From Moniliella sp. 'wahieum' (lineage: Eukaryota): a stretch of 64,000 bases of DNA. Positions 3,589-64,000 of this stretch are shown one piece after another. The stretch's first letter is position 1. The number at the start of each line of letters is the position of its first letter. The DNA lies in the NCBI GenBank assembly GCA_003971905.1, contig RSEE01000030.1, positions 434,001 to 498,000 of the forward strand, in the 5' to 3' direction. Under the pieces are notes generated by a model. That model searched no databases. It was given only the letters and a program-made list of their open reading frames with translations, and was not told the DNA's origin. The position numbers were made by a program, and so were the translations under genes.

Positions 3589-4809
3589 ATTGACGCTTGG
3601 TGAAGGTGTGACAACGATCAGACTGCGTGGCTGAATCGGTGCTTGCCTAACGTCAACTACTGGCAGATAGGGTTGGGAACAACCCTACTCTAATATTGGC
3701 GCTTGCCGCAGCAGGGCAGGTTTTGCTTGCGATTGCAGTAGGCTGAACGTTTATGTTTCAGTGTTTTTTCGCTATAAATCGGGTGCAAGCAAGCTCGCCT
3801 GACGAGTTTTTCCATCCACCACGACTAGCTTGGTAAGTCTGCCACCCTTGCACACCGGCTGGGATGACAGGCGCAGGAAAGATCGCGTTCATCGCATCTA
3901 AGCGCCCACTTAACTGGCACCTCCACGTTGATTCAAGGATTGCTTCCTTTCCAGGAGGCGGGCATTGATGCCGTTACTCTGGATTCTGAGCCGTCATTGC
4001 GTGCACACCTGACTATGACGAAAGCGACTAACCTTATTGTTTTGTCATGCAGAATCCCATCTCTCCGCACGAGATCCACCTGTTTTGTCAGCATTGCCAG
4101 TCCGTTACACCCCTGTTGAGCCTTAAGAGCACTGTACCGGTCCTCCTTACCCTTTCGTTGCCTCGGGCAAGGATTGGGTAAGGTTCAAGGACGGCGGCTA
4201 CCCCACCTTGGTGAGGGTGGCCGTAAAAGACGGTCAGCACTTGTGTCATACTCAACAAGACGAACGTCCGTATGGATTTGCTTGCCCTTGTGGCGGCGCC
4301 TGGGCCCACGTGATTTTGCTCTTGAGCTGGTCAACTCACGGGCCTGGGCGCCTGTGCAAGTCCTTCGGCACATTTCATCGATGAATTTCCTGTACATTAC
4401 TTCTGAGAATGACACACAGTAGCAGTAGGTGTAACAGTGACGCCCTCGAGACGTGTAGCATGGAGTAGTAGGAAGATCCTTGTGTGGCTTCTCCCTTGAT
4501 GCATGATGCATGATGGACGGTGGGGCCGCTGAGGCTCCAGCCTGTAACCTTCTGGACTGGGCAGCTCTTGTGGGTGCGGTAGCTCAAGCAGATACCAAAT
4601 GGGGACAACGGTATGGTTACGTAAGCGGTGCGTTGCCTTCGGCCTTTTTGCGCCCTGTCCCGCCTGGCCAGCCCGATTGGGTCGAAGTGGTGGCGCGCTA
4701 GCCGCGAGCAGCTCAGAATTCGATCAACGTATCGACACGTGCCTGCCAGGTGCGCAAGAGAGAGGCTTCCGCCTGCGTCCGCTCTGTCCTTTTCCAGCGT
4801 CCCCCCTCC

Positions 4810-13801: not shown

Positions 13802-14019
13802 GTCGGGGGGCGCCGGCGGGATGAGGGGTGTGGGTGAAGCGGGGAGGCCGGAGGGGTGGCGGCGATGGAGGCGAGGCTGGCAAGCGCGCAGCTGATCGGA
13901 ACGGCGGCGCAGCCAGCAGCCAGCCGTTAATCAATCGCCCCAGGCGCGCCCATCTGTCCTTGTCGCAGCCACATGCAATGTTTCAAGTGACTAGTGACGC
14001 GCCCCTGCCTCACCCAGGC

Positions 14020-21021: not shown

Positions 21022-22607
21022 GGCGGGCGGGTGTGTGGTGGGACAGAAGCAAGCGCTGCAGATGCTACGCGTCCCACGGACCGCTCTCTGCAAGGAGCGC
21101 GGATGTAGGTGGGCTGCAAGGCCCGCTGTTCTCTGGGTTCCACAATCTCCGACCCTCGATCACCGACCCATCGGCGTGCTGCCTGCCTGCCCCCGGCCTA
21201 GGCTGCCTATCCACGCGTGTTCCTGCTCCCTCCCGCGGCTTCCGGCCGTGGCATCGGCATCAGTCATCGATCATCGATCATCGACCATCATGCATCCGCG
21301 GTGCGTCATCTATGCATGCAACCAACGTCACCCATCCTTTGCGCACCGCGCTTGGCGCCTGGTGTGTGATGCATGATGCATGCATCCCGAGATTTCCTTT
21401 CAGCTTTCTGCTTCGGCCTTCGACGATAACGATAACCTCCGCATTCCGCCTCCCGCCGTTCCGCTCCTGGTGCCACCATCGACTACGGCCGGCCGTCCTG
21501 GTTCGGGCGCTGCACGACGCTGGGTGCCTCTGCTGGCCATCACTGCGACCCCTTCGCCTAGCGCCCAGGCAACGTGCTTTGTCAGGGGCACCTGCACACG
21601 TGGGACGCACCATCGTCGCATCATGCATCATTGGCCCCATCATTTGCAAGCTGCTGGAGACCAACGGCCACAGCTGGTCCGGATGCAATGATCAACCTGT
21701 TCTTTGCATCCCTGGCTCGCTGAGCCGATCCACATGTGCGCCGTAGATCCTTCTGGAATGGGTTGCATGGAAGTACGGCTACGTGCGATCCGTACGCGTA
21801 CGGCATGGTAGCGCCCCTCGCGATGGCCGCGCGGGATGGTCCTATAGCATTTGGCGGCCAAATCAAATGTAGTCCACCTCGCTTTTTAGCCCGCTATAAA
21901 AGGTGTGGCCAAAAGACGTCCTCCATGTCGGGGAAATTCCCAACGTAAAGAGATGCATCAGGATCACAATACGGGCAGTGGTGGGACCCCGTCTTGCTCT
22001 GTGCGGTAGACCGACAAGGCTTGTTCCAACGCGCATGTTGTGGGCGAGGGCCGAGGGTGGGGAGGAGGGGTGTTGTGGGGAGCGTGAGGGCTGGCGGATG
22101 TGGCTCTTCGGGGAGCGTGAGCACGGGGTGATTGAATATTGAACGTTGAACATTCGGATGGCCCCACTGGGCTCGGACAAACGCAGGCTGCCCAGGCGCC
22201 CAGACACGGCCTGTGCGCTGGCGTGCCGTGTGCTCGCCAAACGGGGGTGGCCTGGTGGGGGCGTGGCACACTGCCCCTGTGGCGGCGCCACGCGCGCTTG
22301 CGCTCTGCTGCGTCCGCCGCCGGGCAGGCCAGACAGCGGCAGACAGCAGGCCACAGCGGCAGCAGACACCAGGCCACACCAGCTGCCAGCCTGGCCCATC
22401 GCCTTGGCTGTGTCGGGCGCCCGCCGCTCACCGCCCACTGCGTCGTCCTTGCCTCTGCTCCCCATCTGGCTGCCATGCCCCCCCCCGGCCCTGTTCCTGC
22501 GCCCAGCATGCCCCCTCCACCCGCCCGTGCGTCCTGCGTCCTGCCCTGCCCTCTGCCCCGCGCCCTGCTGACCCCCTCTCCCTTCCGTCCGTACAGACGC
22601 GTACGAC

Positions 22608-28807: not shown

Positions 28808-29863
28808 ATGCCTCACCTTCCTCCGCAACTCAAGTCGCTCGTGCTCTCACCCACCTTTGCAGGTGGCCGCCTGGCCAAGCCGCTGCAGCCGCCCAAGGCG
28901 GCTCTGCTCACCAAGCTCTTCCAGGACGTCGAAAGCTCCGCAGCAAGCAAGGTCTCGGCTGGGGCGAATGGCTGTCGATCACGACCGCCAGCCTGTTTAC
29001 TCTCGACTCGCCCGGATCGCTCCAGGCGCTGCACAAGTTCTCCGCGCCTCCCGCCTGGAAATCGAGGAGCGCACAGCGCGCGCCTCCTTGACCCGCGAGG
29101 TGGGCCTGAAGTGCATTGGGTTTGTTGGCATCCCCAAGGTCATCAACAACCTTGCTGCTCTCCGCAAGGCGGTCGAGACGGACGCCGAGCTGGTCTCGAA
29201 GCTCTCCCTTGAACCTCGCAGGTAGGTCTTTTTTCCGTTCCGTGTACCCTTCCCCCCCCCCCCCCCCCCCAGGCTGGGAATGCGCTGCTGACGTTGACCT
29301 TTCTCAGGCGCGTGACAAAGGACAACATTGGCTTGGTCAACAAGTCGGCGTACGGGTTGTGGGACAACATTTACACCCCGCTTTCGGAGCGACTGATTGA
29401 TGTGCTCAAGAACAGTCATCCTGACTGCCTGTGTTTATCATTGAGAACGAGTATGGTCCGCTGTTTGCCTCGCCCGGCTCGTTCCATGATCCCGCTCTGC
29501 CCGAACCGGCGTGGGACGTGAACCGGCTGCGTACCTCGCTGGTTGCCATCTCGGCACTGCGGTCACAAGGCGGTGTGGGCCCGCAGGTCACGTCGCATAT
29601 TTGGGGGCTGCTCAAGGCCAAACCCTCCATCTCGTCCCAGGACGTGAACAAGGAAGGGTTGGAATGGCTCACGTCGGAAGAGGGGGCAGAATGGGTGGTC
29701 AAGACGGTCGACCAGGTATGTATCCATCGTGCATCCTTATGAATGGAAGAAGGCAAGTCAGGACTGACTGTGGAACTGCGGATTTGACCAGATTGCCGAG
29801 GTGGTCGAAGGTACGCCAGAGGCAGAGCGGGAGCCCAAACCTGCGCCCAAGCCCAAGCTGTAA
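28808..29863 (+). CDS. AhpD/carboxymuconolactone-decarboxylase-like fungal protein (Pxp2-like); introns about 29222-29307 and 29716-29791
   Basis: REVGLKCIGFVGIPKVINNL, LWDNIY..SHPD..FIIENEYGPLF, TSLVAISALRSQGGVGPQVTSHIWGLLKA, WLTSEEGAEWVVKTVD; spliced end ...PKPKL*. Confidence 0.7.
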
Positions 29864-30789
29864 TCGGAGCATATCGTGGGCGAACGTGCTGCCTGTTTCC
29901 AGCGATCTGCACTACAATAGCGACTGTTCTTGTTGATTATCGAACACCCTCAGCGTAACCCGAATAGAGTGGGACTTGTAGTGGGCATTATAGAAGCACA
30001 AGCGAACGAAGACAACCAATCCTCAGCGGAGACGTTATACTGAACGCACTTGAAGTCCTGGGGTAAAGCAAAACTCGATCAAAGTGCACCCTCTCCGCCA
30101 GGCTCTGCCACGTCCCAGACCTTTGCAGTTGAACGTTCGTTGAACTTGACGTTGAGAAAACCAGCAGATAGACCGGGGAGGATACGTGCGGTAGGTAAAT
30201 CATCCTCTTGTGGTACCTGCAGTAAACGAGGTAGACTACGGTAAGGCCGGTAAACGTGGTAAACCACCATTCTGCTGGCACCGAATTTATCCGACAGCTG
30301 GCACAACAATAGGTGCGTCTTCACGCGTGACGTTCATGTGACATGTGACTAGTGACTCCATCTGCTCCTTGCGCTTTTGGCTCGTGCGCAGAACCGCAGT
30401 GACCGGTGACGGTGACCGGTGACCCAAAGTCTTTTAATCGATGAGGCCGTCACATGTCACACCGTGACGAGCACAATTTCTATGTAGCAACGCTGAAGGG
30501 CGCACGCCATTCCCCCGTCCTCCACCTACACCGCAGGTTGAAAAGCAGTGCATGAACAGCTTGGCCAGCTTGGTCAGCTTGACGGAATGGGTGAGAAGCA
30601 CGGTTTTGGTTTGGTTGGCACCTTGGACTCGAAGAAGGAGAAAAAAACAACGATAAACAAACAAGGCAAACGAGACGGTAGTAACTGCGACTAGTAGAGA
30701 AGCACTGGCAACAGAAGGACGAAACCGATGACAAACCACTGGTGGCCATATGGTGGCCTTGGGTCCCCGCATACCTGTTTTGGCCATGC

Positions 30790-32204: not shown

Positions 32205-33135
32205 GAGGCTTAGAGCTTCAAGCTTCAGGCTGAAGCTCTGTAGCCTCAACCTCACTAGCACTCAAGCTCAAGCTCCAAGCTCCAAGCTTCAAGCCTAAAA
32301 AACTTACGGCCTACATATCAGGCCCAAAGCCCTTAGCCTAAGGCCTAAGGCATAGCCACTAGCCAGTACCAGGAGCAAGTCGTAACCGGAATTAAACCAG
32401 GTACTAGGTACTGTTACCATGTTACCGGGGTACCTGGTAAGGCGGTCGCACTGCTATGAACAAGTTGGTTCAATCAAAACCTGGATGCAGTCCGAGACAG
32501 ACCAGATGCCTGGGCGACCGGTGATGGGTGCATGTCATGCATGTCATGCATCATGCGCTGGAAGCATTTGCCACGCAGCCAAGGCAGCGCGACGCATCAT
32601 GCATCATGCACATCATGCGTCGCATCACACGTCACGCGTCATGCATCATGCATCATGCACCAAGTAGTGAGTGCGGAGTGTTAGCTTGACTAGTGACTTA
32701 GCTAGTGCCTCAGACTGACGCATAAGGCCGAGGTCTATTAGGCCGGTCACCGGTCACCGGTCACTGGTCATTGGCCACCGGTGAGCTCAGCTGGTTAATA
32801 GGGTCACTAGGTCACTAGGTCACTGCTCGCCGCGAAAGCGGTTGGAGGATGCGCACGTGACCGCATGACCAGTAAAGCTATAAAGCTCCTCATCCACATG
32901 GGCCTCATGCCTCGCCCTGCCCTGCCCTGTCTTGTGAGGCCGTCAGATCACAGGCACCTTCCTTGCACGGCGATCGACCATCCTGAAAATGGTCCGGCAA
33001 GCGGCAACAGGCGGCAACGTCAGCGTCGTCAGCGTCAACCCTCAAATCCCCAATTAAGAGGCAGTCCATCGCTCATTAATTTCATTAACGTTTAACGTCC
33101 AACTTGAACATTCATCGCTCCAGCTTCAGCTTCAG
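32205..33135. repeat. cluster of heptad TNA+palindrome arrays (AGCT, GGCC, TGCA, CGCG, CTAG, CCGG types)
   Basis: For example TCA CGCG TCA TGCA TCA TGCA TCA TGCA (32632-32659), CCGG TCA CCGG TCA CCGG TCA (32743-32763) and TAA GGCC TAA near 32339. Confidence 0.8.
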
Positions 33136-34837: not shown

Positions 34838-35182
34838 GGGAGGAGGAAGTTGGTGGAAATGGAGGCCTCGACCAAGTGGAGCTCACTGAGGACCTGGGTA
34901 CACTTGAGTTCAAGCTTGAGGCTTGAGTGTACTGATCGATGAACGTATCCACCCCATCTACCTTGTGTTCAACGTTCAATATTCTGGCCACGTTTCAAAT
35001 TCCAGTGCTGATACGGCGGAACGCTCCCCTGATTCCGCCCGGGGGAGAGTGGAGTCACATGGCGGGACACTGCCCCCGTGCATGGAACACTTTCTCTTCT
35101 TCCTTTTTTTTCTGGGCGCACGTGGTCCATAAGAGGAGCGGGCGTCTGGTCTTTTCTGCCCAACCACCCTATCCTCCCCACC

Positions 35183-36638
35183 ATGTCCTTCGGCAAGCTC
35201 TACGGCGGCAACCCCGACTTCACCCGTGTCTGGCGCATCCGCGCCGCCGCCAAGGTGGCCGGCCTCGATCGAGTTCGTTCCCACCAAGGTTAATGTGGAC
35301 ACCAAGACGCCCGAGTTCCTTGCCCTGAACCCGCAGGGCAAGGTCCCCGTCTGGCACGGTGCTGACGGCTTTGTCCTCACCGAGTCGCGTGCCATCGCTA
35401 TTTACTGTACGTTCTTCTCTTCTCCTTCCCTCCCGACAGCGATGATGTGTTCTTCGGAACAGTTATCCCTGGCTAAATGGTGGCATTGGTAGCCACCGCG
35501 TCGTGTCGAAACCATTGCACAAAATGTGGCTGAGCTGTACACGGGAGGAAAGACCAATTGAATCAATCACAAGGGTACTGACGTTGATTGTCGTTTGTCG
35601 CTAGTCGCCTCGCTCGCTAAGAACGCCAAGCTCCTCGGCAACGATGAGGCTACCTCGGCGCTCATCACGTCGTGGGTTGAGTGGGCTGATGACGAGGTGC
35701 TCAACAAGGCCATCTCGATCTGCTACCCCAAGTGGAACATTGTGCCTTACTTCAAGCCGCTCGACACGCTCCAGCGTGAGGGCCTTGCCAAGTCGCTCTC
35801 TTACCTCGAGAAGACGCTGGCCAAGAAGACCTTCCTTGTTGGCCACCGCCTGACTCTGGACATTGTCGTCGCCGGCAACCTGCAGTTCATCTTCACCTCG
35901 ATCTACGGTGCCGAGACGCGTGCGACCTACCCCAACACGGTTCGCTACTTCAACACGGTGCTGAACCTGCCTGCGCTTAAGGAGGTTGCCCCGACCGAGG
36001 CGCTGCTCGCCGAGGACTACAAGTTCTCTGTGCCCAAGAAGGAGAAGGCGCCCAAGGCTGCCCCCGCCCCGGCTGCCCCCAAGAAGGAGAAGGCCGCTCC
36101 AAGCCTGCTGAGGACGACGAGGCCCGTGAAGGAGGCCCCTAAGCCTAAGAACCCTCTGGACTTGCTGCCCAAGTCGTCGTTTGTCAACGACGACTGGAAG
36201 CGTGTCTACTCGAACCAGGACACCAAGACCCAGGCCATCCCCTGGTTCTACCAGAACTTTGACTGGGAGGGCTGGTCCATTGTCAAGTTCCGCTTCAAGT
36301 ACCCCGAGGACCTGACGGCCATCTTTATGAGCTCCAACCTGATTGGCGGGTTCTTCAACCGTCTCGAGGCCAGCCGCAAGTACTTGATGGGCACGGGTGG
36401 TGTGTTTGGCGAGGCGAACGACTCGGAGATCCAGGGTGTGTTTATCCTCCGTGGCCAGGACTGGAAGCCCGTCCTGGGCGTTGCGCCCGACATTGAGTCG
36501 TACGAGATTACCCCTCTCGACGTGCGCAACAACGAGGAGGACAAGAAGTACTTTGAGGGCATGCTCGAGTGGGAGCTTTCTGTCCCCTCGCGCGCGGGCA
36601 AGCCCCTGGCTTACCAGGATGGCAAGGTGCTCAAGTAA
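35183..36638 (+). CDS. TEF4: translation elongation factor EF-1 gamma (eEF1Bgamma); intron 35407-35604
   Basis: GST-like N-terminus (EFLALNPQGKVP..GADGFVLTESRAIA), FLVGHRLT, KPKNPLDLLPKS, DDWKRVYSN, FMSSNLIGGFFNRLEASRKY, DGKVLK*; strong codon bias. Confidence 0.95.
35436..35538 (+). ncRNA. SNR38: intronic box C/D snoRNA snR38 (guides 2'-O-methylation of LSU rRNA, yeast Gm2815)
   Basis: Terminal stem ACAGC/GCTGT, extended by CCTCCCG/CGGGAGG. C-box-like ATGATG at 35442, guide AACAGTTATCCCTG (antisense to rRNA CAGGGAUAACUG) followed by D'-like CTAA, D box CTGA at 35530-35533. Host gene matches yeast TEF4/snR38. Confidence 0.9.
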
Positions 36639-38678: not shown

Positions 38679-39222
38679 GAGGAGGGGCAGTGGGGCAGGT
38701 GGAGGAGGCGGAGGCGGTGGGCGAGAGGAAATGCCGGAGAAGTGCAAGAGGAATTGCGGGAGGAATGCGAGAGGAAATGAGCGAAAAGGTGCGAGTGGGG
38801 ACCCGTGTAAGACCACTTGTGTGCTGGGCCTGCGTGGCCTCAGCGCAGTCCGTGGGACATCACTCGGCCGTCTCACTGGTCACGCGTCGCCGTCACTGCC
38901 GCGCCAGCCCGCTCACATGCGCTCACACCCGACGGGGCCCGGGCGTTCGGGTTTCGCTTCCGCCTCGGCTGCAGGCACTGCATGACGTAGCCAGCCCAGC
39001 CCCAGCCCAGGCAACCCTACCCCTGCGCACGTAAGCAGGCGCTGACCTGCGGTGCGTGTGCGTGTGGCCATCGATCGTCCCGCTCAGCAGGCGCTCAGAC
39101 TCAATCTCAGCTCTCAGCGCCCCCTCAGCACCAGCTGCTTCTGCGCCGAGTGGCGCTGCTGCTCCACCGACAGCACCACCCGACACGACACGAGCCACCC
39201 CGCTGCCACCCCTCTGCCCGCG

Positions 39223-40888: not shown

Positions 40889-42629
40889 TTAAAGTGGAGC
40901 CCGACGGGGTTCGATGGGGTGAAGAGGCGGGCCCATGGGGGCGGCTGCAGTCCGCGGGGATAAAGCGCCGGGAGCGGAAAAGGAACGGGCAAAGTCGCTG
41001 TCCCCAGGGGGAGGAGGGGGCGCATGGGAAGGGAGAGAGCTTGTGAGGCCACCACTCAGGTGACCGCCAGTACTTGGCAACCCCCCGCCTCGAGGAGGAA
41101 GAGCAATGTGGAGGGGCTCGTAGGGGAGCGCAGTGCTGGCGTAAGTGCCAAAGGGCGAGACAGGGGTTACCAGTCCCCCGGCGATTCCTCCGTGCGCATG
41201 GCCTGGACCCGAAGGAGCGAGGTGTTGAGAGGAATGAGAAGAATTTGGACCAGGTTGGTTGCGACCAATAAGGGGCGTCATGGTGTGCGTTTGGTTGGAG
41301 GGTTGGCCCAGGGGAGGGTAGGGGTCGGATGACAGTTTGTGTTCAAAGAGAGATACAGAGAAGGAAGTATTGCGGCTGGGGAGCATGGTTGAACCTGAGG
41401 ACAAGGTCGAAGGTCCCGAAGATCCACGCGATGGTGCGTCGGATTCAGAGGGTTGCACCTCGTACATGCCACTCATAGGGACCCGTTCGAAATTGGGTGG
41501 GACGAAGCCAATCGACCTGTTTCCTCGGTTCCCACTGGCGTAGGGAACCATAGACTCTGGTTAGGGGAAAGGGAGGGGGTATTGGAACTGCACCCTTGTG
41601 CCATCCATGATGCTTGGGAAGGATTGCCCTCTATGGGAAAGGACCACCGCTGCTGGTCCAGAGACCAATGGTCTTGCCGGCCTTCCTGCAACTCCCGCCC
41701 ATTGCCCGGTCCGGTACGGTGGGAAGCCAGCCGCAGCGGAGGGAATGGGAAAGGATCGTAGGCCCTCCTGCTGCCTCCCTAGTCAGCTCTGAGGAAGAGG
41801 GAGAGGGACCCTCCCTCTCAGGTTCGAGAGGGTGAAACGTGTTGGAAGGGAGGGGCGCAGGGTAAGAGCAAGGGTCCATTTGTGGTGTCGGTACGTGGTG
41901 GTTGGGCTGGGCGGGGGAAAAAGGAAGATAGGAGGACCGAGATTGCTGCTGATGGTCAACGGAGCTCTGAGCTCGGCGTGTGCGTTGACGGTGCTTGAGG
42001 GAAGGGATTTCCAATCCAGCTGCTTGGTAGGCGGCCCGTTCTTTACTGAATTTGTTAATGATGCATAGAAGCAAGAGATCAGTACATGAACGTGAGAGCA
42101 AAGGGCACAGAGCGAGATCAAAAGCACGCACTTGGAAGGAGGTCCCCGACGCATCAAAACGTCCGATCTGGTGCACTTTCGTCCCAAGTGAGCGCATCGC
42201 CCGCAAATCGGCATTTTGCGGTCACATTTCGTTTTCCTTTTCAAACGCAATCGGGTGAGCGATGCTCATGATGCTCGGGGCACAGAGAGAAGAGATGAAA
42301 AAGGGCGGGGAGGAAAGGAAAGGGGGAGGGGGGGAGGAAGAGAGACGTACCTGCGTCGGCAACTGTCGCAAGCCGGGTTTCCCTCATATGAGGAGCCGCT
42401 CCGGCGGCGCAAATTCTCAAGCGCGAGCATGGTCTGGTCAAGGCTGTCTCCTGGAGGGCAAGCCAGAGGAGTGGTTGTCGGGAAGAGCTGGGTCGCCCTC
42501 CGTAACTTCCTTGGCGCCATTCGGGGGGCTCCTGTACTCGGATGAGGAGGCGAGGGGCACAGGATGAGTGGATGGAGACGTCCAATAGGGCAGATGGGCA
42601 GACTGGCCCGGTGGACGAGGGGGCGGCAT
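40889..42629 (-). CDS. Zn(II)2Cys6 binuclear-cluster transcription factor; two introns; ends approximate
   Basis: Spliced ACDSCRRR|KTKCDRKMPICGRCAHLGRKC (C-x2-C-x6-C-x6-C-x2-C-x6-C), then RRGPPSK|KER; the rest is S/P-rich. Confidence 0.85.
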
Positions 42630-44493
42630 GAGTCGGGACCCTATAAGTTAGCAGGCGGGAGTGGGCAGGGGATGGAAGAAGGGCGAAACGGATCTGTCTG
42701 TTGGGGAATGCGCACAGTCCACAGAAACGAAAGCCGTCCAAGAGAAAGAGGTGGGGTGCACTCTGGTAGCCGTGTGTGCTGGACGCTGGGGCCCTGGGGA
42801 TGGGGATGGAGGAGGGGAGGACGGGGACAAAGGAAAGAAGGAATGAACAGAATGCCAGAGCCTTTTCCCTGTAGTGGAAAGGGCAAAGTGGGAGCAAAGA
42901 ATGCCGAAGGAGCAACGCAAGGTTTGAGAGAGAGTGGTTCCAACTGTTGTACGTGAGGCGCGCTGGTGGCAAATAAGAGAGACCCCCCAGACTGACCAGG
43001 TTGCCACCGCGGGGGGGAAATTTATCCCCCTGTGGAAGACCACGTCACATCCCAGTTTGCGCATGCTCGTCCTCTATCCTATACCGTCATGCCGGGGACG
43101 CGCAGCAGGGCACACGGTTGCAATGACGCTGCGAAGATGCATCTGCATGATGCGTGAGGCGTGAGGGGCGTCAGGCCTGTAGCCAGCCCGAGGCGTACTG
43201 CCTGCTACTGCATGGTGTGGCATGGTGTGGGAAGCTCTCTGCGGCATGTTTGGGACGAACGGATAAGGAGGAAAGACTCAACTCAGTACTCGGTACTTTC
43301 CGTATATACTCAGTACGCAACGTCTCAACGTCCCACGTCCAACGTTCAACGTTCAGCTCACTCGGCACTGCACAGCTCTACGGATGGCATAGTACATTGT
43401 GGTGCCCACAACCCGGGCACTATACTAGCCCCAAAGTGAGGAACGCACCGGGACGAGGGGCTCCAGTGACGATATAGCCACGGTGTACTGAGAGCAAGCC
43501 CTCGGCTTGGGTAGACATATCACATGGCGTTTTATTGTTTCTTTCGGAAGAGGTGCCGCGCAGTGGGACCTTGTGCGGGGCTGCAATGCCGCGCTGCTGC
43601 CGCTAGTGCCAGGATGTGTCAAGCGCACCAGCTTAGCGCTTACAGCGGGTGCGCCAGGAGGCAGACAGGTGGCAACACGGAATCGAGAAGGAGCGAGTGG
43701 GAAGGCGGGCGAGCGTTCAGTCTCTCGACACACCGAGCGCCAAGAGCAACCCAGCCACTTGTCGGGCATCAGCTGGGTGTGCAACGCGTATGGCCGACGA
43801 GACGCTGCGCCCACGGGCGTCGCCAGGTGATAGCAACGGGGCCAGAGAGGAGGGACAAGTGACTCCTCGAGTGGCCAGTGCTAGTGACCAGTGAATAGGG
43901 AAGCTTGGAGCTGGAAGCTAGTTGCCGGAACGAACAACTAGCATACCTATGTTGCATTGCGTTGGGGTGGGGTGCTGCGCGGCCAGGTACCACAACATTG
44001 CATTTGGGCTGCCCGCAGCAGGCGGCAGGCGGCGCACGCATCATGCATCATGCACCAACGTTTCTCGGTTCAATTGTGCACAGTCCTGTTACAAGACTGC
44101 CTGGCCAGGCAAAGCCAGGCAGGAGGGGGCAGTGGCCCGTGGGCGAGACAGCAGAGCAAGTAATGCCATTCGATCGTCGGGCCCATCGCGGGGTGGGGGT
44201 GGCAGAGCGCACCAGAGGGGGCAGCACGCGGCAGCCGTGGCCAGGAGAGGCCATGTGCATACACGGGCCATCCGTGGTACCTGGCTGGAGCATTTCCAGC
44301 GCCCAGCCCCGCTCAGCCGCTGATGTGCTCAGCCACTCATGTACTCATGTACATACACCATGCATCATCCATCAGTGCGTCAGGTTGTCCCGCGTCACTG
44401 ATCCCGCCGATCATCGATCATCGGACTGCGAACACACATGGCCGCCCTAGTGCTCCATCCGACGAACGATTGGGGCTCGGCGCTCGATGAGCT

Positions 44494-44610
44494 CGATGGG
44501 CGATGGCGATGGGCGATGGACGCTGGGCCATGGGCCATGGGCGCATGGGCGATGGTCGATGGTCGATGGGCGATGGCTATGGGCTATGGGCGATGGTCGA
44601 TGGTCATTGA
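44494..44610 (+). repeat. degenerate 7-bp tandem repeat (NNNATGG)n
   Basis: gggcgatgg, gggccatgg, gtcgatggtcgatgg and gggctatgg units in mostly 7-bp register. Confidence 0.8.
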
Positions 44611-44819
44611 GATCGCTGAGCAGTGGGTTAATGGATGTGGCTGCTGGGTGCTGGGTGGCCGTGTTGGCCGTGAAGCTTGAAGCCGGCCAGCGGCAGTCGT
44701 TGCCGACACCATCCGTGAGCGATATCAACGTTACGTTAGAAAGGCAGGGTGTACATACGCCCATTGCCCAAGAATGTGCATGTGGCATGTGCATGGAGCT
44801 GGCGCGAGGAGGCCTGAGG

Positions 44820-47800
44820 GCATCAATCATCGATATTCGCTTCCGATCATCGATCGCCGCTCACCAATCATGCATCATGTAATCATGTGTACCACCCATC
44901 ATGCATCATGCATCACTAGTCACTAGTCAGTAGTCACTGGGCGCACCATCCCCGAATCCATCATCGAAAGCTACATGTCGGGTGTCGAGAAAATTGAAAT
45001 CCTTGCCGAAGACAGTTCCTGCCAACACCGATTCCACACTGGTGTACAAGCCATGTGTGAGATGTGCCACTCACCGACCCTTCGGATTGCCCGGCTCCGT
45101 CGAGGGCCGTATATTATTACGTGGGTCACACGTCACAGTCACATGTCACATTAGTTACTAGTTACTAGTTACTAGTTACTAGATCATCGATCACTCGATC
45201 ACTCGCCCCACCCACTCGAAGACTTTTGTCACATGCGAATATGTACACTTGCTACCGCACGCCGCACGGTGCAAGACTCTCCTAATTTCAAAGCGCTAAA
45301 ACCGCTGAGCCTCAGATCTCTGATCTCAAAGCCCTGGCTAAGATTCTGTGTGACATGTGACATGTGACATGTGATCTTTGAAATTTGATGTTTGAAGTCG
45401 AAGCGACATGTCGAAAAGTAATGTTTAATCCCCGTCCATGTCACTATCCGCAGCCATCAGTCGCTACGTATCCTCTGCTTTGTCGCAGAAAGCACGCCGA
45501 GTCGGGCTTAAGACCATGGGGGCTTTTGGATTGTGTTCGGAGTAGCAGCCTGATGCATGTGAGCGCGTGCGCGCTCAGCCTGAGCGCTCAGCTTGCGTAG
45601 CGCTAAGCTTAGCCTGAGCGTGTGACAGTGACATGTCAGTGACCTGTGACATGCGGGGTCTGAGATTTGAGGGCCTAAGGACTATGGAGATCGCATGGAT
45701 AGCAGGAGGGAAGTGGGGCGAGTGTTCGCTTTTAGGTACCGGTACCTCGCCTTTTTTCGACTTGGAATTATTTCCTGTACACTCTTTGTTCTTCAGCCTG
45801 CGTCGTACCTTCATCATCATGTCGGATGAGGTCGATGAGGCTAACACGTCTGGCTGGAATCCCCAGAATCACCGCCACCCCCCCTCACTCAGATCGTGCT
45901 TTGCTAAGCGCTAATGCCGGCCATGGGGCCTGGTTACTAGCAGGTCACTTGACCAGTCCGAAGCAAAAGTGATTCTAGCTGCCGTGCGGCGTCGAGTACC
46001 ACACTGAGAAGCAAAGAGGACTCAGTACTCAGTACTCAGTACTCAGTACTCAATGTTCAAAGTTCAACTTGCAAAGCAAGTACCCCTGTTGCATCTTTTG
46101 TGTGGCCAAAAAGAAAACCTGTGACTCTTTGTGGCTTGGGGAAAGGGTTTGATTTGGAACTTCGTAACTATATCTACTTGTACAGATGCATGCTGCGCGC
46201 TGGGCATGATCGATGATCGGTGATCGGAACCTAATAACGATGATCTATCCTCAGATACTTAGTTACTTAGTACTTACTTATTCGCGAGGGGGTCTGTGAC
46301 ACATGTGACACTAGTTACTAATTACTGTTACTTGTGACGCGTGACACAACGATTGACATGACAAGCCCACATCGCCCTGCCTTTGCATCCACGCCAAGTA
46401 AGAGTGCTCTCAGTTCTCCTCAGTTGCTCAGCCCCTGAGTATACCAGTGCTGAGGCTGAGCCTCAGGCTCAGCGGCAGCCCGCACTCTTGGCCGGCTCCG
46501 CTCTCAACTCCGCCATCGGAGATCATCGATCAGTGTGCAGAACCAGGCCGATTGTATTCCTGACCGTGTATTGAGTTCTGATTAATGAACTGATTTCTGA
46601 CCTCTTCTGGGATGTGGGGTCTGGGTCAGCCTGAGCGCTGAGCCTCAGCTCAGCGCTCAGCGCCAGCGCGCGCTCGGAGCTCACTGGCATCAGTGTCGCA
46701 ACAGGTGTTCAGCCACTGTAGAAGATAACTGCGTCAACTTCTTCAGTGTCATAACTCGCTCTTCTTCTCGCGGGCTGGCTTTGCGGAGAGCTAAAGGCGG
46801 TGACGGTACCAGAGAGGCCCTCTGGGGCCTGAGGCCGCCTGAGGCTTCAAGCGTCAACGTACTCAACCTTCAACCTTCAAACTTCAAGCTTCAACCTTCA
46901 ACCTTCAAGCTTCAACTTGAAGCATGAGAGATGCAGGGTGTAATATGCAACAGAATGGAATCAATGCGCCGAGATCACACAATGCACCGGTGCGCGCGCC
47001 ACCCGTGAAGTGTGATACATTGGCATATGTCATGTGAAATGGCGCAGCCATCAGTGCGTCAGTGCATGAGTGCTCAGTCCAACATTCTTACCTTTTGCGT
47101 AGCACTCCGCCGTGAGTACTGAGTGGCGTGACGCGTGAACCGCACGTTTCCGGCTCAAACACGGGGGCCGCAGGGTTCTTCGTCCTCGTCAAGCGTGACG
47201 TACGGGTCATCCATTATATCGATTTTATAACACTTGGCACTTTGATGCATAAGGGTACTCGGTAGGGGTAACTAGTAACTCGTCGTTAACTAGTAACTAG
47301 CTGTCAAAGTCTTGTAAAGCTGTAAAGGTTAAAATGCTAACCACAATACCTAGAACTAGTAAGCAGTAACTAGTAACTGCTGGGAAAAAGTAACTCGCAA
47401 CTATTGTACTCGGTAACTCAACGTTCAACGTACTCAACAGTTCTTCTGGTGCCGTCGCTGTTTCGCCGAAAAAGGGAATGGAGAGCTAGCACATGCTGCC
47501 CTCCGATATTGAACGTCAACGTGTCAACATGTCAACGTTCAACGTTGCCGCGTGACGCGCGGACCGTGCGCGCGTATATTTTACTCACGTTTTACCGCGT
47601 TGCTGTGGGTTAGCTGGGTTACCGGTTAGCGGCTCTGCTACCTCTGTTATATGTTCCGGTTCCTGCGTTATACGTGTTACATGCGTTACAGGCTACCGCG
47701 GAGGGAGCATGTGTCCAGCGCTCACAGACACTTGTCTTTCACGGAGTGCTCTCCTACCTATCCCGACTTCAAGCTCTTTCATAGTATACGCTTCAAGCTT

Positions 47801-49240
47801 CAGTAAGGCTCAAGAGCGCACCCGCTGCTTCCCGCTTGAAGTTGAAGCATGAAGCTTGAAGCCTGATGAAGAACCGCCTGACCCTTGAACCTTGTTAGAA
47901 CTCACAGCGCTCATTATTCATTGAAAATATTGAAGCTTGAAGCTGAGAGCCCCACAACTGGAAGAAGTTCTTGTAGCTGGGATACGGATGGACTTGAAGC
48001 TTAATGCATCATTCATGTTGCATGTGAAGTCGGTAGGCGACCAAATATATGAGCGAGAATCCATATTCAACGTTACATGTTACACTTCAATTCAGTACTC
48101 ATTCCCTCCTCAGGCGTAGGAGTTCCGTTGTTTTTTGCTTCGGTTTCCTTGTTCCGCATCCAAGCCTGCCTAGCCTCTGGCGGGGACTCTTGGCTGCTGT
48201 TGATGCATGATGTACATCTGTACAGGCGTTGCTGTTGGCTTATTATATAGTTGACCATACCACAACCAGATTGCATCTCCTTCGAGCTCGAGGACCATCA
48301 AGACTTCAGGTCTCATATCACATTCAACTTTGTTGCACTGGGACTGCTGTTAGTACTTAGTGGCGCTTCCCTATAGTTATAGTGGTTTGGTCGAATAGAC
48401 TTTTGGCCTGCGCCGCACTCCCACATGGCGCCTCCACCTTGTTCCAATTGTGATCAAAAGCCGCACGTGTGTATGTAGGCGCCGCTGGGCGCATTCCTCT
48501 GTTCGTCTTTCTTACCACCGCAAATTTTGCTCAACTCGCTACCGCGTTACCCATTATCGCTCATCTGCTTCTAATAGCTCAGACCCCGACGTCTGCCTGC
48601 CGTAGTACGTCGCTACACAAAAACTTTCCACGACGTTAATCCCAAATGATCGATAGTCGATAGGCGATCGATCTCGATGAGATCTCGATCATCGAGCGAT
48701 CCGGATCGGCGTACATTCCTTGAAGAACACTTCAAGCTTAGTTCCACGCCTGTGGCTTTGAAGCTCTGAGATCCGAAGCTTGAATTACTGAGTACTGAGT
48801 TGAGTAGTCTGGGTACTGTGAATTATTGCTAGTTACAGTTCAGACTGATGAGTACGTTGAATACTGAGTACTGAGTGTACTGAGTACTCCGACTGAGTAC
48901 TGGGTACTGGTGTTGAGCGCGTCACGCGCCACTCCATCATCTCGGTCACCGGTCAGGCGTTCTTGACATCCAGTTTCAATCTTCAACGTTCAACGGCCGC
49001 AGTGCGCGCGTGTGGGTTGGTCCAGGTTGGTCCGCTTTTTGTCAGACACGATGAATGATTATCGATTAATGGGGCATGATGCATGGCGTATGGTGCACTC
49101 AGCCTGAGGAGAATGGAGGGTGTGTGATTCTGAGGCGCGGGGCAGCAGGCTCTGAGACGAGCAATGTGCATGTCACATGTCACATGTCACGGGCCCTGGG
49201 GGCAGGGGGGTTAAGCGCTAAGCCTTTTAGCGCTAAAATG
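44820..49240. repeat. gene-free island of heptad TNA+palindrome microarrays
   Basis: (TTACTAG)4 at 45155-45182; (TGACATG)3TGA at 45351-45374; (TCAGTAC)4TCA at 46022-46052; TCA-A(C/G/A)CT x7 at 46863-46914; many shorter arrays. Confidence 0.85.
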
Positions 49241-51036
49241 GGATACAATTTACAATCTCTTGAAGGACCGTCACGGAGTCGACTCTTAAGGTATGGTCGC
49301 TCTTGGGAGGCTTGTTGGTGCATCGACGACGTAATAGCAGGGGCGACTCTCCTTTTGATCAGTGGCGAGAGAGGCTGCGTAGGAACCCCAGCCAGTTGGG
49401 CAATATGATAGTAAAAAACGTGTCTAAGAAAGGCATATTCGTATCCCCCGGGACGGGAAACGGGGCCGGGGAAAGCAACGTTACCGAACATGGTCTGGAG
49501 AGCCGGAACCGGATGGGAGCTGAGACTGAAGTAGGCTGGGACTGGATGTGGAGGACGAGAGAGAAATAATGGGGAGATGGTTGTTCTATTCCGGAAAGAA
49601 GATTCTCAACAGTAGAGGAAAGATACGGAGAAAGGGGGAGGGTCGGACAGGAAGACATGATTACGATGAAATGGTATGTCATGCTAGTGTATTTACAATC
49701 ACGCCAACACTGAAACCTTCACGGATTGGATACGGTCTAAAGCCGAACAGTGAGTGGCTGACAAAAGCTGAAGCTGTGAGAGATGGGAAGATGAGAGAGG
49801 TGAAGAGGCGGAGAGCAGAGGAGGCAACTAGAAGAGAACAGAAGAGGAGTTATCAGTATACCGTATAGGCTTTAGAGAAGACGGGAGCTAAAAGAGGTCC
49901 ACGGATCATGGATAGAAACCACGAACCAAATTGCTTTTACAGGCACTGCTGGGGAGACTAAAGGGAAAAGAGCACAGAGCAGAGAGGGAGAACGGGGGGT
50001 AGACGGGACTGAGGAGCAGTCACCACAAGGCAGTCTGTCTCGGGGAGGGAACCATGAAGCGAAAGCAGACTCGCAGAACTGAGTTCCCGATTAGGACGAA
50101 GCGTGGGTAAAAACAAAACCAAGGGACGACTGTCGTCGCCACGGATTCGCAGGTCGATGGGCGCTCGCGCCACCGGACACGGTGTGGTCATACGCATAGT
50201 CGGTGGGAATGTGTGTGTGATGTGAGGCTCAGGCATTATGTGCACCATGAAGTGCACATGATGGTCCTCGTGGGTGATGCAATCGCGATACTAGTAGTAT
50301 AGTGGTGTTGGCGGCGCTCGAACACCACCCTTCATTCTCAGAGAGGGGCATCAAGCAGTCACAGCCGCCACCAGGCCTGTGGCTTCGGAACAGAGAAGGC
50401 AGAAGCAGAAAACATTGGGGCTGTGGGCTACGGAAGGACTGCAGGATTCTTGGCCACACGAACAAAAGCCAGACTGTTGTGACGAAGAGACGAAGTCACA
50501 GCGAGCTCGATAACGATTCCCAACATTTGAGGGCCTTTCTTTTTCCAGAGAGTAGGGATCAGGATTCAATCTATGCTGCCACTTCTCCCATGCCAAATTC
50601 GTGAGGAGATGATGTAGTTTCCCAAAAGAGAGAGAAGACCCTCTGCAGCATTGCCCTATTGCAGGCCACTTGCTTGCCCTCGTACATCTATATTATTATA
50701 CGCATTCAACTACGCTCCAAGGTTTGCCTCTCCTCATGTCTTCTCTGCTGCTTTCCCCAATTCGATGCTTCCTTCCCTCCGTGGTTGTGATCAGCTCCCT
50801 AATTCTTCCAGACAGTGGCAGCCATTGATTGCGGCCACTTGGACACGGCGCAACAGTTCAGTGTTCAACATGTTCAACTTCCAAAAGCCATAAACAAGCG
50901 TTGAGCGCTGGCTGAGGGAAGAGCGTGCAAGCGACAAAGAGTCAAATTATAGATTAGTTCGCCTCCTCCTCGTCCTCTTCCTCATCAACATTATCCCCAT
51001 CAGTGTTGGTGACAGCCTTGCCCTGTACCGTACCAC

Positions 51037-59850: not shown

Positions 59851-60653
59851 CAGCCAAACGGCCGTTAAAACAAAACAAGTCCTCTCGTCAATGATCGATG
59901 ACGATGAGATGATGTCGATGATGCATATGACGTCCAGGGAGTGGTCCGCGAATGAATTTCTGCTGCTGCAAGGGATGCGAACTGCCCAAAAACATGCACC
60001 ACAGAGACAAGTCTATGCTACGCCTGCGTGCGGTTCATTCCGCGGCATACTACACGCATACTCTTCGGGTAGGAATGCTCCTCAGGAAAGCTCAGGTCTC
60101 ACGATGAGAGCCAGGCACTCTCATTTATTCGTAAGATCACAGGCAAACAGCATGAAACCAAGTCCACCTCTCTCTCTATTGTCCCAGGTTGCTGAGAGGT
60201 GGTTATATGGAGCAGGCTTCAGAGCGTTAAGCCCCACGTCTGAAACATAGTACACGGTAAATTAGATGGATGGGGACACAATTTTGTTGTACGGTGAAGA
60301 TGAGCATGGGATGACCGGATGGGACACAAGAGAGAGGAAAAATGTGATCCAGTGGCAAAGATGGAAGAATGGAGCAGGGAAGGCGCGGCGAGAGTCAATA
60401 GAGATGGGCGAGAAATGCAAAGGTGACAGCAAGGAGAACCTGGACCACTGGATAGATGCCAAGGGTTGATGGTGACGACGGGGTAGATGTGGCTAATGGG
60501 TGCCAACAAGCGAGGCCGTATAGCGGTGGGAGAGAGAGAGGGGGGAAAGAGAGAGAGAAAGAGAGAGCCAATCAAGGCAGTAGAGGCCAGTGCCAATACA
60601 AGAAAGAGACGAAGAACAGACTGTCACTGCCCGCCATAGGCAGATCCAGCATC

Positions 60654-61834: not shown

Positions 61835-62610
61835 AGCGTCACGCGTGACGACACACACACCATCAGCGATCCGCGATCAGCGATCAGCTGCCGACTATCC
61901 TCCACTGGCTCGGCCAGTGCCTTGCTGCTGCCGGCCGCAGCGGCATTTCACACGTTGGATGTCACATGTCACATGTCACATGCCGCACGTCACAGGCATC
62001 GTCACACGTCAGATCTCAGGATCTCAGAATCGGATCTGAGACACAACAGTGACTGGGGAGCTTGGCTCTGCTCAGCCTGAGCGCTGAGGCTCAGCCCTCG
62101 CTGCTGCTTCCGGGGGAATCGCCACGAGAGACAGCACTCGGGCCGAGGGCCGAGCAGTCGGTCCAGTGCTCAGGATCATCGATAATCGATCACTACTCGT
62201 AATGCGTAACTTAAGGGCGTTGCAGATTCCAGGAGGACCACAAAAGCACCCGAGAAGCCAATAATGCTAACGTGCTGAAAAGTAGTCACCTCACTTCACC
62301 TATGGACACGAGGAATGCATGGTGTATGGTGTATGGTGGGTGTATGGTGTATGGTGTATGGTGCACCTTTGTCCCATGGCAGCTGCTGCAGTGAGCCTTA
62401 TGCCGCTTTTTCCGAACGTGTACAACAGTGCCGGCGGTTTGCCCTATTACTAGGAGGCTAGTGGTTGCCCATTGCTGCCTGGGGCTACTTCAGGCTACTC
62501 CCTGGATTCATGGACATCATGCATAGGACGTCATGCGTTACTGATCCTTCAAGCTTCAAGCTTCATCGATGATCATTAACACCATGCATCATGCATCATT
62601 AATCATTCTT
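61835..62610. repeat. heptad TNA+palindrome cluster plus (TGGTGTA)n
   Basis: TCA CGCG TGA at 61839; (TCACATG)3 at 61962-61982; TCA GATC TCA at 62009; TGA GCGC TGA at 62078; (TGGTGTA)n at about 62320-62365; TCA AGCT TCA AGCT TCA TCGA TGA at 62549-62572. Confidence 0.8.
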
Positions 62611-64000
62611 GAAGCTAAAAACTAGTCGCCAGTCTCAGTTCACCCTATTCTTAGTCCTCATTTCCTCCGCATGGTGGCTGTGGCATGTCCCACATGTCAT
62701 GCATCACATATCATGCATCACTCCTAACTGTCACCTGTTGCGCATCTGCATCCCGCCACCCACATTGGTCACCGGCCCTTGGTCCCCGTTTTGCTTGTTC
62801 CACATAGTGGTGCATAATGTTTGTCACACAACGGCATCTTCACACTTCATCACATGGGCCTCTGAAGTATTACTGAAAGTAGGGAGAAATAACACAGAAG
62901 CGCTGCAATTCCTGGTAACCAGTAACGGTAAGCGGTAAGAGGTAGCCACCCTCTGTATCCACCATCTTTCTCGGCCTCCCGTGCCACATGCATCCTGTGT
63001 TATCCTTTCGCATAGACTTGTGTCGGGTTATGGAAAAAAGATGATCTAACGATCAACGTCCAACCTTCTGCATGATTTTCCCTCTCTCTTTTCGGCGATT
63101 TCAAGAAGCTGCCACCAACCATATTGGATGGAATAAGCCATCGGTTTTTTACCATCAACAGTAGCGCCAACAACATCAGAGCATTAAAAAAGCTAAGGTA
63201 TATATACAACGATGACTCTTCTGTAAATTGGGTACTTATTCCATCTCTTTCCTCGAACTATGCATTATACAGAGGTGGTGTGGTATAGGAAAGTACAGCG
63301 CATCAGGGCCGGCGAGGGCTATATCATAACTGTTGTGTGTATACTCTTCTCAGGTCTCCCACAACGTCTCTCGTCATCCGTTTGTCACGCAGTTCTTCTC
63401 GGCCGTTGTCACTGTGTTCTATATTATGCATGCAGGGTATATGGAGTAACTAGTATAATGATGCATGATGACGCGTTGGATTACCCGCTCTGCGCACTTT
63501 GATCTACATATCTACATGTCTACTTATCCCCTCCCTGCGGCCCATACGGGCTTCCGGGCTTAGTGTCAAAGGCTTTAAGCTCCAAGCTTAATGAGCGCTG
63601 AGCTTCGAAGTCCCAAGCGTCTGTTGACATGGACTTGAAAGAGGCCAGGGCACACACTGTTTTTGTCCAAGGTGGCTCATATTCAATATTCTGAGTGTCT
63701 CGCCGCTTGCCGCTGTGGTACCTGATGTATAGTAGTACGCTGACGCGGGGCACTGAGTACTGATATGGATGGGCCTCCACAAACATGTTACACGTGAGGC
63801 TGAGGTAGGAGGCCTGAGGCACACAATCCTGTGAATACTGAATGCGACAACGCTATCACCCGTTGTAATAGAACGCATGAGATTTCTGTTTGCTTCAAAA
63901 GAGCATTCTCTTCGGTCCCACTCAGGAATACAAGAAACAAACTATCTGAGACAAAGCTGAAAACGAGAGATCGCGTGACGCGTGGTGCTTGACGCTGAGA

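Follow-up and report, generated by a model that had tools for sequence, protein, structure and literature searches.

Seven-base TNA-palindrome arrays in intergenic DNA of Moniliella sp. 'wahieum': probable stacked excision footprints of a hairpin-type transposon

The stretch of DNA studied here (the window) comprises 64,000 nucleotides of the contig RSEE01000030.1 of Moniliella sp. 'wahieum' (positions 434,001 to 498,000, forward strand). Its intergenic regions carry short arrays in which TNA triplets (N, any base) alternate with 4-base palindromes in a 7-base register. All counts reported below were taken over this single 64-kb window, which is approximately 57% G+C overall, contains no tRNA genes and is devoid of long open reading frames of bacterial style. 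The predicted exon products are those of an ordinary eukaryote and include SAPS, ribosomal protein S3, a P4-ATPase, kinases, PP2C, EF1-gamma and a Zn2Cys6 factor, among others. The nearest named proteins to the EF1-gamma exon belong to Ustilaginomycotina (Tilletiaria, Tilletia, Malassezia), with about 52% identity, and one further protein reached 75%. On the basis of these similarities, the host seems to be a basidiomycete of the smut/Malassezia subphylum (Ustilaginomycotina), from a poorly sampled branch.

A perfect 4-base palindrome enclosed by two TNA triplets is called a core in what follows. The 125 cores of the window are confined to non-coding DNA, as expected of 7-bp insertions, and their main clusters lie at 43.9-49.4 kb, 30.0-30.5 kb, 32.2-33.1 kb and 62-63.8 kb. 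They group into 100 chains (83 single, 11 double, 4 triple and 2 quadruple), which together cover 1574 bases. The individual arrays referred to in the text are collected in Table 1.

The gene-free stretches at 43900-49400 and 62000-64000 are also distinguished by their composition, with a G+C content of about 50%, versus 57%. The first of them adjoins the gene for the Zn2Cys6 factor (minus strand, 41786-42265). This stretch may be a long promoter, a place where transposons once landed or, for example, a centromere-like region.

Table 1. Location of the main features in the window. Ancestral contexts are as reconstructed from the flanks of each array.
Feature	Position	Strand	Description
Mixed array	22131-22151	+	Ancestral AT-TGA-AC; ATAT then ACGT; both flank rules hold
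Putative footprint GTTGAAC GTTC GTTGAAC	30128-30145	+	7-bp copies with 4 P nucleotides between them
Putative unshortened footprint GGTAAAC GT GGTAAAC	30249-30264	+	7-bp copies with 2 P nucleotides between them (GT is the reverse complement of AC)
Mixed array	30337-30357	+	Ancestral TG-TGA-CT; CATG then CTAG; both flank rules hold
Mixed array	32627-32659	+	Ancestral CG-TCA-TG; CGCG block from left flank, TGCA block from right flank; both flank rules hold
Period-8 variant GGTCACT A GGTCACT A GGTCACT	32802-32824	+	7-bp copy plus 1 P nucleotide, 2.9 copies
EF1-gamma gene	35133-36635		
Putative footprint GCTCACA TG C GCTCACA	38911-38927	+	7-bp copies; P nucleotides: 2 from left copy, 1 from right copy
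Gene-free stretch (about 5.5 kb)	43900-49400	none	Densest in putative footprints: 60/125 TNA-palindrome-TNA cores
Mixed array with switch from TGCA to CTAG	44897-44938	+	Ancestral CA-TCA-CT; left CATCA(TG CATCA)x2 gives TGCA; right TCACT(AG TCACT)x3 gives CTAG
Homogeneous array (ACTCAGT)x4.7	46020-46052	+	Begins exactly at flank dinucleotide AC, ends at TCA
Array with AGCT block	62547-62574	+	AGCT block from left flank CT, then TCA TCGA TGA (perfect 10-bp palindrome, central base of second TNA complemented)
Mixed array	62587-62607	+	Ancestral CA-TCA-TT; TGCA then TTAA; both flank rules hold

The association between TNA and 4-base palindromes is far above chance and ranks among the strongest signals that the window contains. 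Two TNA triplets are separated by exactly 4 bases at 263 places; the spacer is a perfect palindrome in 125 of them, has one mismatched pair in 90 and two in 48. Random 4-base spacers are expected to fall into these classes in proportions of 1/16, 6/16 and 9/16, and the binomial probability of obtaining 125 palindromes out of 263 (6% expected) is approximately 2e-77. The excess is seen only when a TNA anchor and a 4-base spacer are combined. Indeed, other anchors with the same spacer length remained at chance level (ANT 6/175, CNG 24/412, GNC 27/484), and so did TNA anchors with spacers of 2 nt (30/91, for a chance value of 25%), 6 nt (1/136), 8 nt (1/129) or 10 nt (0/136).

Neighboring anchors mostly share their middle base (84 TCA-TCA and 66 TGA-TGA pairs, against 17 and 14 mixed ones), which is what direct duplication predicts. 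Perfect tandem repeats of at least two copies are likewise concentrated at period 7, with 71 occurrences for about 5 expected, and 14 at period 8. Among the 71 period-7 units, 40 are perfect odd palindromes (10.7% of random 7-mers), and all but two of these 40 are centered on TNA.

Of the 16 possible palindromes, 12 appear three times or more; GATC, AATT and ATAT are each represented by a single occurrence, and TATA is absent. GATC is as common in the window as the others, yet only one of its 240 sites lies between two TNA. The rarity of these four palindromes may reflect a target preference against nnTNA-GA, -AA, -AT and -TA.

To define the elementary unit, the point where the 7-base periodicity ends was located on each side of each of the 100 chains. 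Duplication of a heptamer in arbitrary phase would give two-copy tracts of 14 bases with randomly phased edges. Instead, the commonest periodic tracts are 12-13 nt long (mode 12 nt, or 1.7 copies) and contain an inverted dinucleotide. Ordinary slippage cannot originate such units, as the preliminary description of this DNA had argued. The edges are not randomly phased either. The periodicity runs past the outer TNA by 2 bases upstream and none downstream in 16 chains and by the reverse in 11, whereas one base on each side was found in 3 chains and two bases on each side in another 3. At least 2 nt of extension on a side was observed in 80 of the 100 chains, versus about 12% by chance.

The basic structure is TNAXY-Y'X'-TNAXY, that is, a 5-base direct repeat split by the reverse complement of its last two bases. 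When TNAXY direct repeats were counted on both strands for spacers of 0, 1, 2, 3 and 4 nt, 12, 21, 158, 33 and 46 were obtained, respectively. The 2-nt spacer is the reverse complement of XY in 122 of the 158 repeats, and the inverse of the TNA end alone was encountered 3 times. Third-order Markov simulations yielded 0.55 structures of this type for the 122 observed. The palindrome is thus set by the site: it consists of XY followed by its reverse complement, XY being the dinucleotide that flanks the ancestral TNA on one side. This flank rule is satisfied on at least one side in 73 of the 93 homogeneous chains. The preliminary description had proposed that the unit added or selected is TNA plus any palindrome; this part has to be abandoned, since the flank dinucleotide dictates which palindrome appears.

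Repeats longer than 5 bases reveal the full extent of the duplicated site. At periods 8 and 9, the extra bases that follow the inverted dinucleotide match the bases upstream of the first TNA in 11/12 and 12/19 cases, respectively. Direct search for pairs of 7-bp nnTNAnn repeats gave 64 pairs, distributed as 32, 10, 15, 2, 1, 2 and 2 over spacers of 0 to 6 nt. The spacers themselves are short inverse copies of the repeat ends, of the kind known as palindromic (P) nucleotides. All 10 single-base spacers are complementary to the end base of one of the adjoining copies (5 cases on each side; p = 3e-4). Ten of the 15 dinucleotide spacers are the pure inverse of one end (4 left, 6 right; chance 12.5%; p = 2e-6) and one more combines one base from each side. 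Both 3-nt spacers are of the 2+1 type, and the only 4-nt spacer is a 4-nt inverse. In a scan that did not impose TNA, which is informative only for 7-bp repeats with a 2-nt spacer (1-nt spacers being noisy, with a chance level of 50%), 9 of 19 repeats were of the P type and 6 of these 9 had TNA at positions 3-5.

All these variants can be described as a 7-base site, pq-TNA-XY, that is present twice, the joint carrying P nucleotides contributed by either end. The direct repeat with its inverted dinucleotide, the dependence on the flank, the full-length 7-bp variants and the TNA center are all features of the arrays themselves. A 5-bp duplication (TNAXY) with two P nucleotides had also been considered; it was displaced by the symmetric 7-bp model in view of the full 7-bp variants and of the mirror events at one TNA. 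A window of 7 bp, symmetric about the TNA, is indeed what follows when left- and right-type events occur at a single TNA. The simple model leaves unexplained six period-9 joints that read TNAXY Y'X' XY TNAXY (for instance TCAAC GT AC TCAAC), at sites including 46854-46866, 47425-47437, 32535-32547 and 30240-30253, in which the two extra bases copy XY and not the upstream flank.

The same rule accounts for arrays in which the palindrome changes midway. The array for which this switch was first reported contains, at 44899-44940, six TCA-anchored units with the spacers TGCA, TGCA, CTAG, CTAG, GTAG and CTGG, exactly as described, and the letters given for all eight cited sites are correct. The seven mixed chains of the window each consist of exactly two blocks. 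The two bases upstream are the second half of the first palindrome in 7/7, and the two bases downstream are the first half of the last palindrome in 5/7. Five mixed chains therefore satisfy both flank rules (chance 1/256 each), and the remaining two satisfy one. The switch arises because the two flanks of a single TNA each give rise to the block on their own side. In the array at 44897-44938, the upstream CA is the second half of TGCA and the CT after the last TCA is the first half of CTAG. The ancestral context can thus be written ccCA-TCA-CTgg, with a final TCACT running into the original flank GG; GTAG is a CTAG unit with one substitution.

This reading modifies the interpretation of several units without changing their letters. 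CTGG at 44937, counted as a sixth unit, is best read as untouched ancestral flank, and CACG at 32625, listed as the first spacer there, as the original left flank (ca CG-TCA-TG). At 13988 and 14081, the second palindromes (CGCG and CATG) have no closing TNA and are plain flank, leaving one scar at each site. The junction at 34933, from TCGA to ACGT, is an exception in which neither flank rule is satisfied.

The preliminary description had also stated that unlike palindromes stay in register, and that their offsets should not be uniform modulo 7. Uniformity is indeed rejected in the window: 39 of 127 pairs of different-palindrome units within 36 nt lie at multiples of 7, where 17.6 would be expected (chi-square p = 6e-6). 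Unlike palindromes meet in phase at 12 junctions, six of which involve two base differences and six involve four. This is close to the 40:60 split that independent draws would give, and unlike the outcome of stepwise mutation. The earlier conclusion that CTAG next to TGCA is not a mutated copy of its neighbor is upheld.

Cut-and-paste transposons that seal hairpins leave, as their textbook footprint, a duplicated target with the flank ends copied in inverse orientation at the junction. We consider, with a probability of roughly 0.6, that the arrays are stacked excision footprints of such an element, with a TNA-centered 7-bp target duplication, and that repeated use of the site, together with slippage, subsequently extended them. 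From the anatomy described above we infer the transposon nature of the agent, its hairpin chemistry and a strand-by-strand joining that holds the period at 7. The element would insert at nnTNAnn and duplicate 7 bases (pq-TNA-XY). Upon excision, both flanking ends would be sealed into hairpins, as with the RAG/Transib, hAT and Mutator-type transposases, and host enzymes would cut each hairpin about 2 bases off its tip, so that one end would bear XY followed by its reverse complement as P nucleotides. In the commonest joint, the two inverted bases would stand where the outermost two of the other copy had been. This would make the site exactly 7 bp longer, and the product would be either TNA-XY.Y'X'-TNA-XY or its mirror image, pq TNA q'p'.pq TNA.

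Such a joint could form if both hairpins were opened 2 bases 3' of the tip and each strand were joined in place: two P bases at one end would substitute for the pair that is recessed at the other. An XY-type scar would then result on the top strand and a pq-type scar on the bottom strand, one of which would be fixed by replication or mismatch repair. Joining strand by strand would explain why the gain is always 7 bases, why the two mirror forms are about equally frequent (16 and 11) and why inverses of the TNA end hardly occur. As each scar would restore the target, further events at that TNA could add units in register, which replication slippage could do as well; one event on the left flank and one on the right would place two different palindromes in phase.

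Two further sets of sites were considered in relation to hairpin opening. If some hairpins were opened only 1 nt from the tip, as a distinct class, mismatches should gather in the outer pair; the 90 one-mismatch units have the mismatch in the inner pair in 55 cases and in the outer pair in 35, and only decay and chance are needed to account for them. Perfect 10-bp palindromes of the form TCA-palindrome-TGA, with a complemented middle base, occur at 4375, 24475, 30321, 34910, 45581, 45629, 59754, 61839 and 62563. They are compatible with hairpins opened 4-5 bases off the tip; these 9-10 sites are not clearly above other non-matching anchors.

Several observations weigh against an origin as excision footprints. 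No transposase match was obtained for any of the 228 stop-to-stop open reading frames of at least 110 amino acids in the window (Pfam scan). Elements with inverted termini flanked by TNA, TNAXY or nnTNAnn did not exceed the null in the window: TNA with inverted termini of at least 8 nt gave 9 hits, all array sequence (2 in a reversed-sequence control), TNAXY with at least 6 nt gave 6 hits (3-10 in simulations) and nnTNAnn with at least 5 nt gave 3 hits (0-2 in the null). The only dispersed repeats of the window are the arrays themselves. Moreover, the scars are more uniform than experimental end-joining footprints, the 2-nt inverse being present in 122/158, and the period-7 joint is deduced, not observed. 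Neither flank rule is satisfied in 20 of the 100 chains, for about 7 chance cores expected; the chains beyond these may be old. The period-8/9 and nnTNAnn classes overlap, being alternative parsings of partly the same loci, so that their counts are not independent. The array palindromes are even-centered, whereas Ac/Ds scars, in the footprint examples of PMC5873905, center on the complement of the bordering base. Finally, slippage makes its own contribution, as shown by imprecise or mutated units that are themselves repeated at 32802, 46863 (TCAACCT) and 44494.

Repetition of the period-8 unit GGTCACT A at 32802 indicates that slippage acts too, and it probably extends arrays once they have been seeded. 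At 44494-44603, an imperfect 7-bp array of about 16 copies is built from CGATGGG and the variants GGTCGAT, GGGCCAT and GGGCTAT. On the minus strand it reads CCA followed by TCGA, TCGC or TGGC, and it resembles a TCA-type scar that was amplified by slippage after a mutation of its anchor to CCA.

Comparison with characterized systems places the arrays close to hairpin-type footprints in general and to no single family in particular. Flank hairpins and palindromic P-nucleotide footprints are described for Ac/Ds in Candida, budding yeast and plants in the excerpted text of PMC5873905, and for MULE, hAT, Transib and RAG in that of PMC5499845. These footprints, V(D)J coding joints and the present arrays share, as far as the same excerpts go, two retained target copies, short inverses of the flank ends and spacers of 0-4 nt; opening of the hairpins falls to the host in the known systems (PMC5873905, PMC5499845), and would do so in the arrays as well. 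In the window, two direct target copies are kept (64 nnTNAnn pairs and 158 TNAXY repeats at spacer 2), and P nucleotides come from either side (10/10 for 1 nt, 10/15 for 2 nt, 2/2 for 3 nt, 1/1 for 4 nt, and 122/158). Unlike known hairpin footprints, the arrays have far more uniform joints with a 2-nt inverse, their scars are stacked and the element is not observed. Moreover, the inverse usually takes up the place of 2 nt from the other copy, so that the arrays always grow by 7.

The length of the duplication, deduced to be 7 bp, is compatible with hAT elements (8 bp, or 5, 6 or 7 in named subgroups). However, the centering differs from the Ac/Ds type, since both copies retain their end base and the inverse begins after it, as in CCTGAGC G CCTGAGC. 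Because of these even-centered scars the agent is not filed under hAT, and the best-known family with 7/8-bp duplications is not a clean fit. Target-site duplications of 7 bp are reported in Basidiomycota for hAT7, from rusts, and for Kyakuja, from Agaricomycotina, in the portion of PMC12730594 that treats these groups. They resemble the arrays in duplication length and in having basidiomycete hosts. They differ in that the hosts named there are not Ustilaginomycotina, a name absent from the main text of that paper, and the window contains no transposase of this kind.

PIF/Harbinger elements (Tourist, mPing) share the TNA-centered target; by the partial account drawn from PMC4561436 they duplicate 3 bp and excise precisely through complementary TNA overhangs, without a scar, unlike the arrays, which show 5-7-bp repeats and scars. 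For Transib, the excerpts of PMC1131882 give hairpins cut exactly at the element border, odd-palindromic targets such as CASTG and a 5-bp duplication, and, within that text, the only fungal occurrence is in one basidiomycete rust; array repeats reach 7 bp when unshortened. The nearest precedent is the '10-bp repeats' scattered in the intergenic DNA of Ustilago maydis, a transposon-poor smut genome, which were suggested to be transposon footprints according to the description in a citing paper (PMC4081816). The likeness is drawn from that description; the present arrays differ in their period of 7 and in having a resolved anatomy.

A scar made without any mobile element ranks second after transposon footprints, and we hold it to be unlikely. 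An endogenous or domesticated nuclease would cut or nick nnTNAnn sites with a 7-base stagger where intergenic chromatin is open, and repair by fill-in plus fold-back or hairpin processing would follow. Such a route would be in keeping with the lack of any transposon or transposase in the 64 kb, with the unusual uniformity of the joints and with the very high density of about 100 chains over 1574 bases. However, it would need two separate steps, stagger and hairpins, to obtain duplication and P nucleotides, both of which follow naturally from insertion then excision, and cut-and-paste elements can remain few while the scars that they leave build up. We know of no endogenous fungal enzyme that makes both the stagger and the hairpins.

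That the arrays are ordinary heptamer microsatellites, created and grown by slippage with palindromic units favored by hairpin-assisted slippage or by selection, is very improbable. Homogeneous arrays do reach 4.7 perfect copies, one imperfect array has 16, and some imprecise or mutated units are themselves repeated. Microsatellites would nevertheless show at least two full copies with edges in arbitrary phase, whereas the modal tract here is 12 nt and the edges are of the (2,0) or (0,2) type (16 and 11 chains) against 3 of the (1,1) type. Furthermore, the two novel bases are an inverse copy of the flank, neighboring palindromes behave as independent draws and the effect is limited to TNA anchors with a 4-nt spacer.

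Footprints of the Tc1/mariner style, with a 3-bp TNA duplication plus two bases from each inverted element end and palindromes that differ by element family, were our first hypothesis and now appear barely credible. Formally, such scars are recognized by a direct repeat (TNA) that encloses a 2+2 inverted repeat. Flank dependence ruled this hypothesis out: the palindrome follows the site and not the element, and in 80/100 chains the periodicity carries on for 2 nt beyond the outer TNA. The hypothesis would also call for no fewer than 12 distinct end dinucleotides, full 7-bp repeats with P-type spacers exist, and PIF/Harbinger, a family that does duplicate TNA, excises precisely in the excerpted text of PMC4561436. 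Least credible of all are selected regulatory arrays, with palindromic sites for dimeric factors in a 7-bp promoter register: the intergenic setting, including the 5.5-kb stretch next to the Zn2Cys6 factor gene, would suit them, but twelve different palindromes are in use, their identity follows the neighboring bases and they decay like neutral sequence, with 90 one-mismatch units (55 inner pair, 35 outer pair).

Other repeats of the window are unrelated to the scars. They are ordinary low-complexity features and comprise a run of 19 C at 29252-29270, an imperfect (GA)n tract at 60530-60567, and repeats of 11, 12 and 23 bp at 38721-38779, in a stretch of 67% G+C. A metagenome scan with the EF1-gamma exon returned three distant loci (L001-L003), in which palindromic spacers between TNA anchors were not in excess (1/10, 0/8 and 0/16).

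Literature searches, including searches with literal array strings, did not retrieve a description of such arrays. The chemistry is already known; what these searches did not find in print is a 2-base joint so uniform and length-preserving, scars stacked into predictable arrays, or such a density of them in an element-free region. The footprint interpretation offers a concrete and testable origin for an unusual excess of 7-bp repeats, in which the seeds are excision scars and not products of slippage. The rule of the flank dinucleotide and its inverse lets any such array be traced back to its ancestral site.

In a bolder version, which we regard as rather unlikely, the writer would be an undescribed kind of element or a domesticated transposase of Ustilaginomycotina, with RAG/Transib-like hairpins at the exact border and a 7-bp TNA-centered stagger. 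Its activity would continue to the present, making it a permanent source of promoter mutations in the form of 7-bp units predictable from the site. If so, the birth of a microsatellite class would be directly observable.

About 1.6 kb of the 64-kb window (1574 bases), all of it intergenic, was apparently written by an element that is not visible locally. If this is true, transposon-poor smut-like genomes may hold a dense fossil record of past mobility. The scars would also register the position of hairpin opening in this fungus, 2 nt off the tip, a property otherwise known only from experiments.

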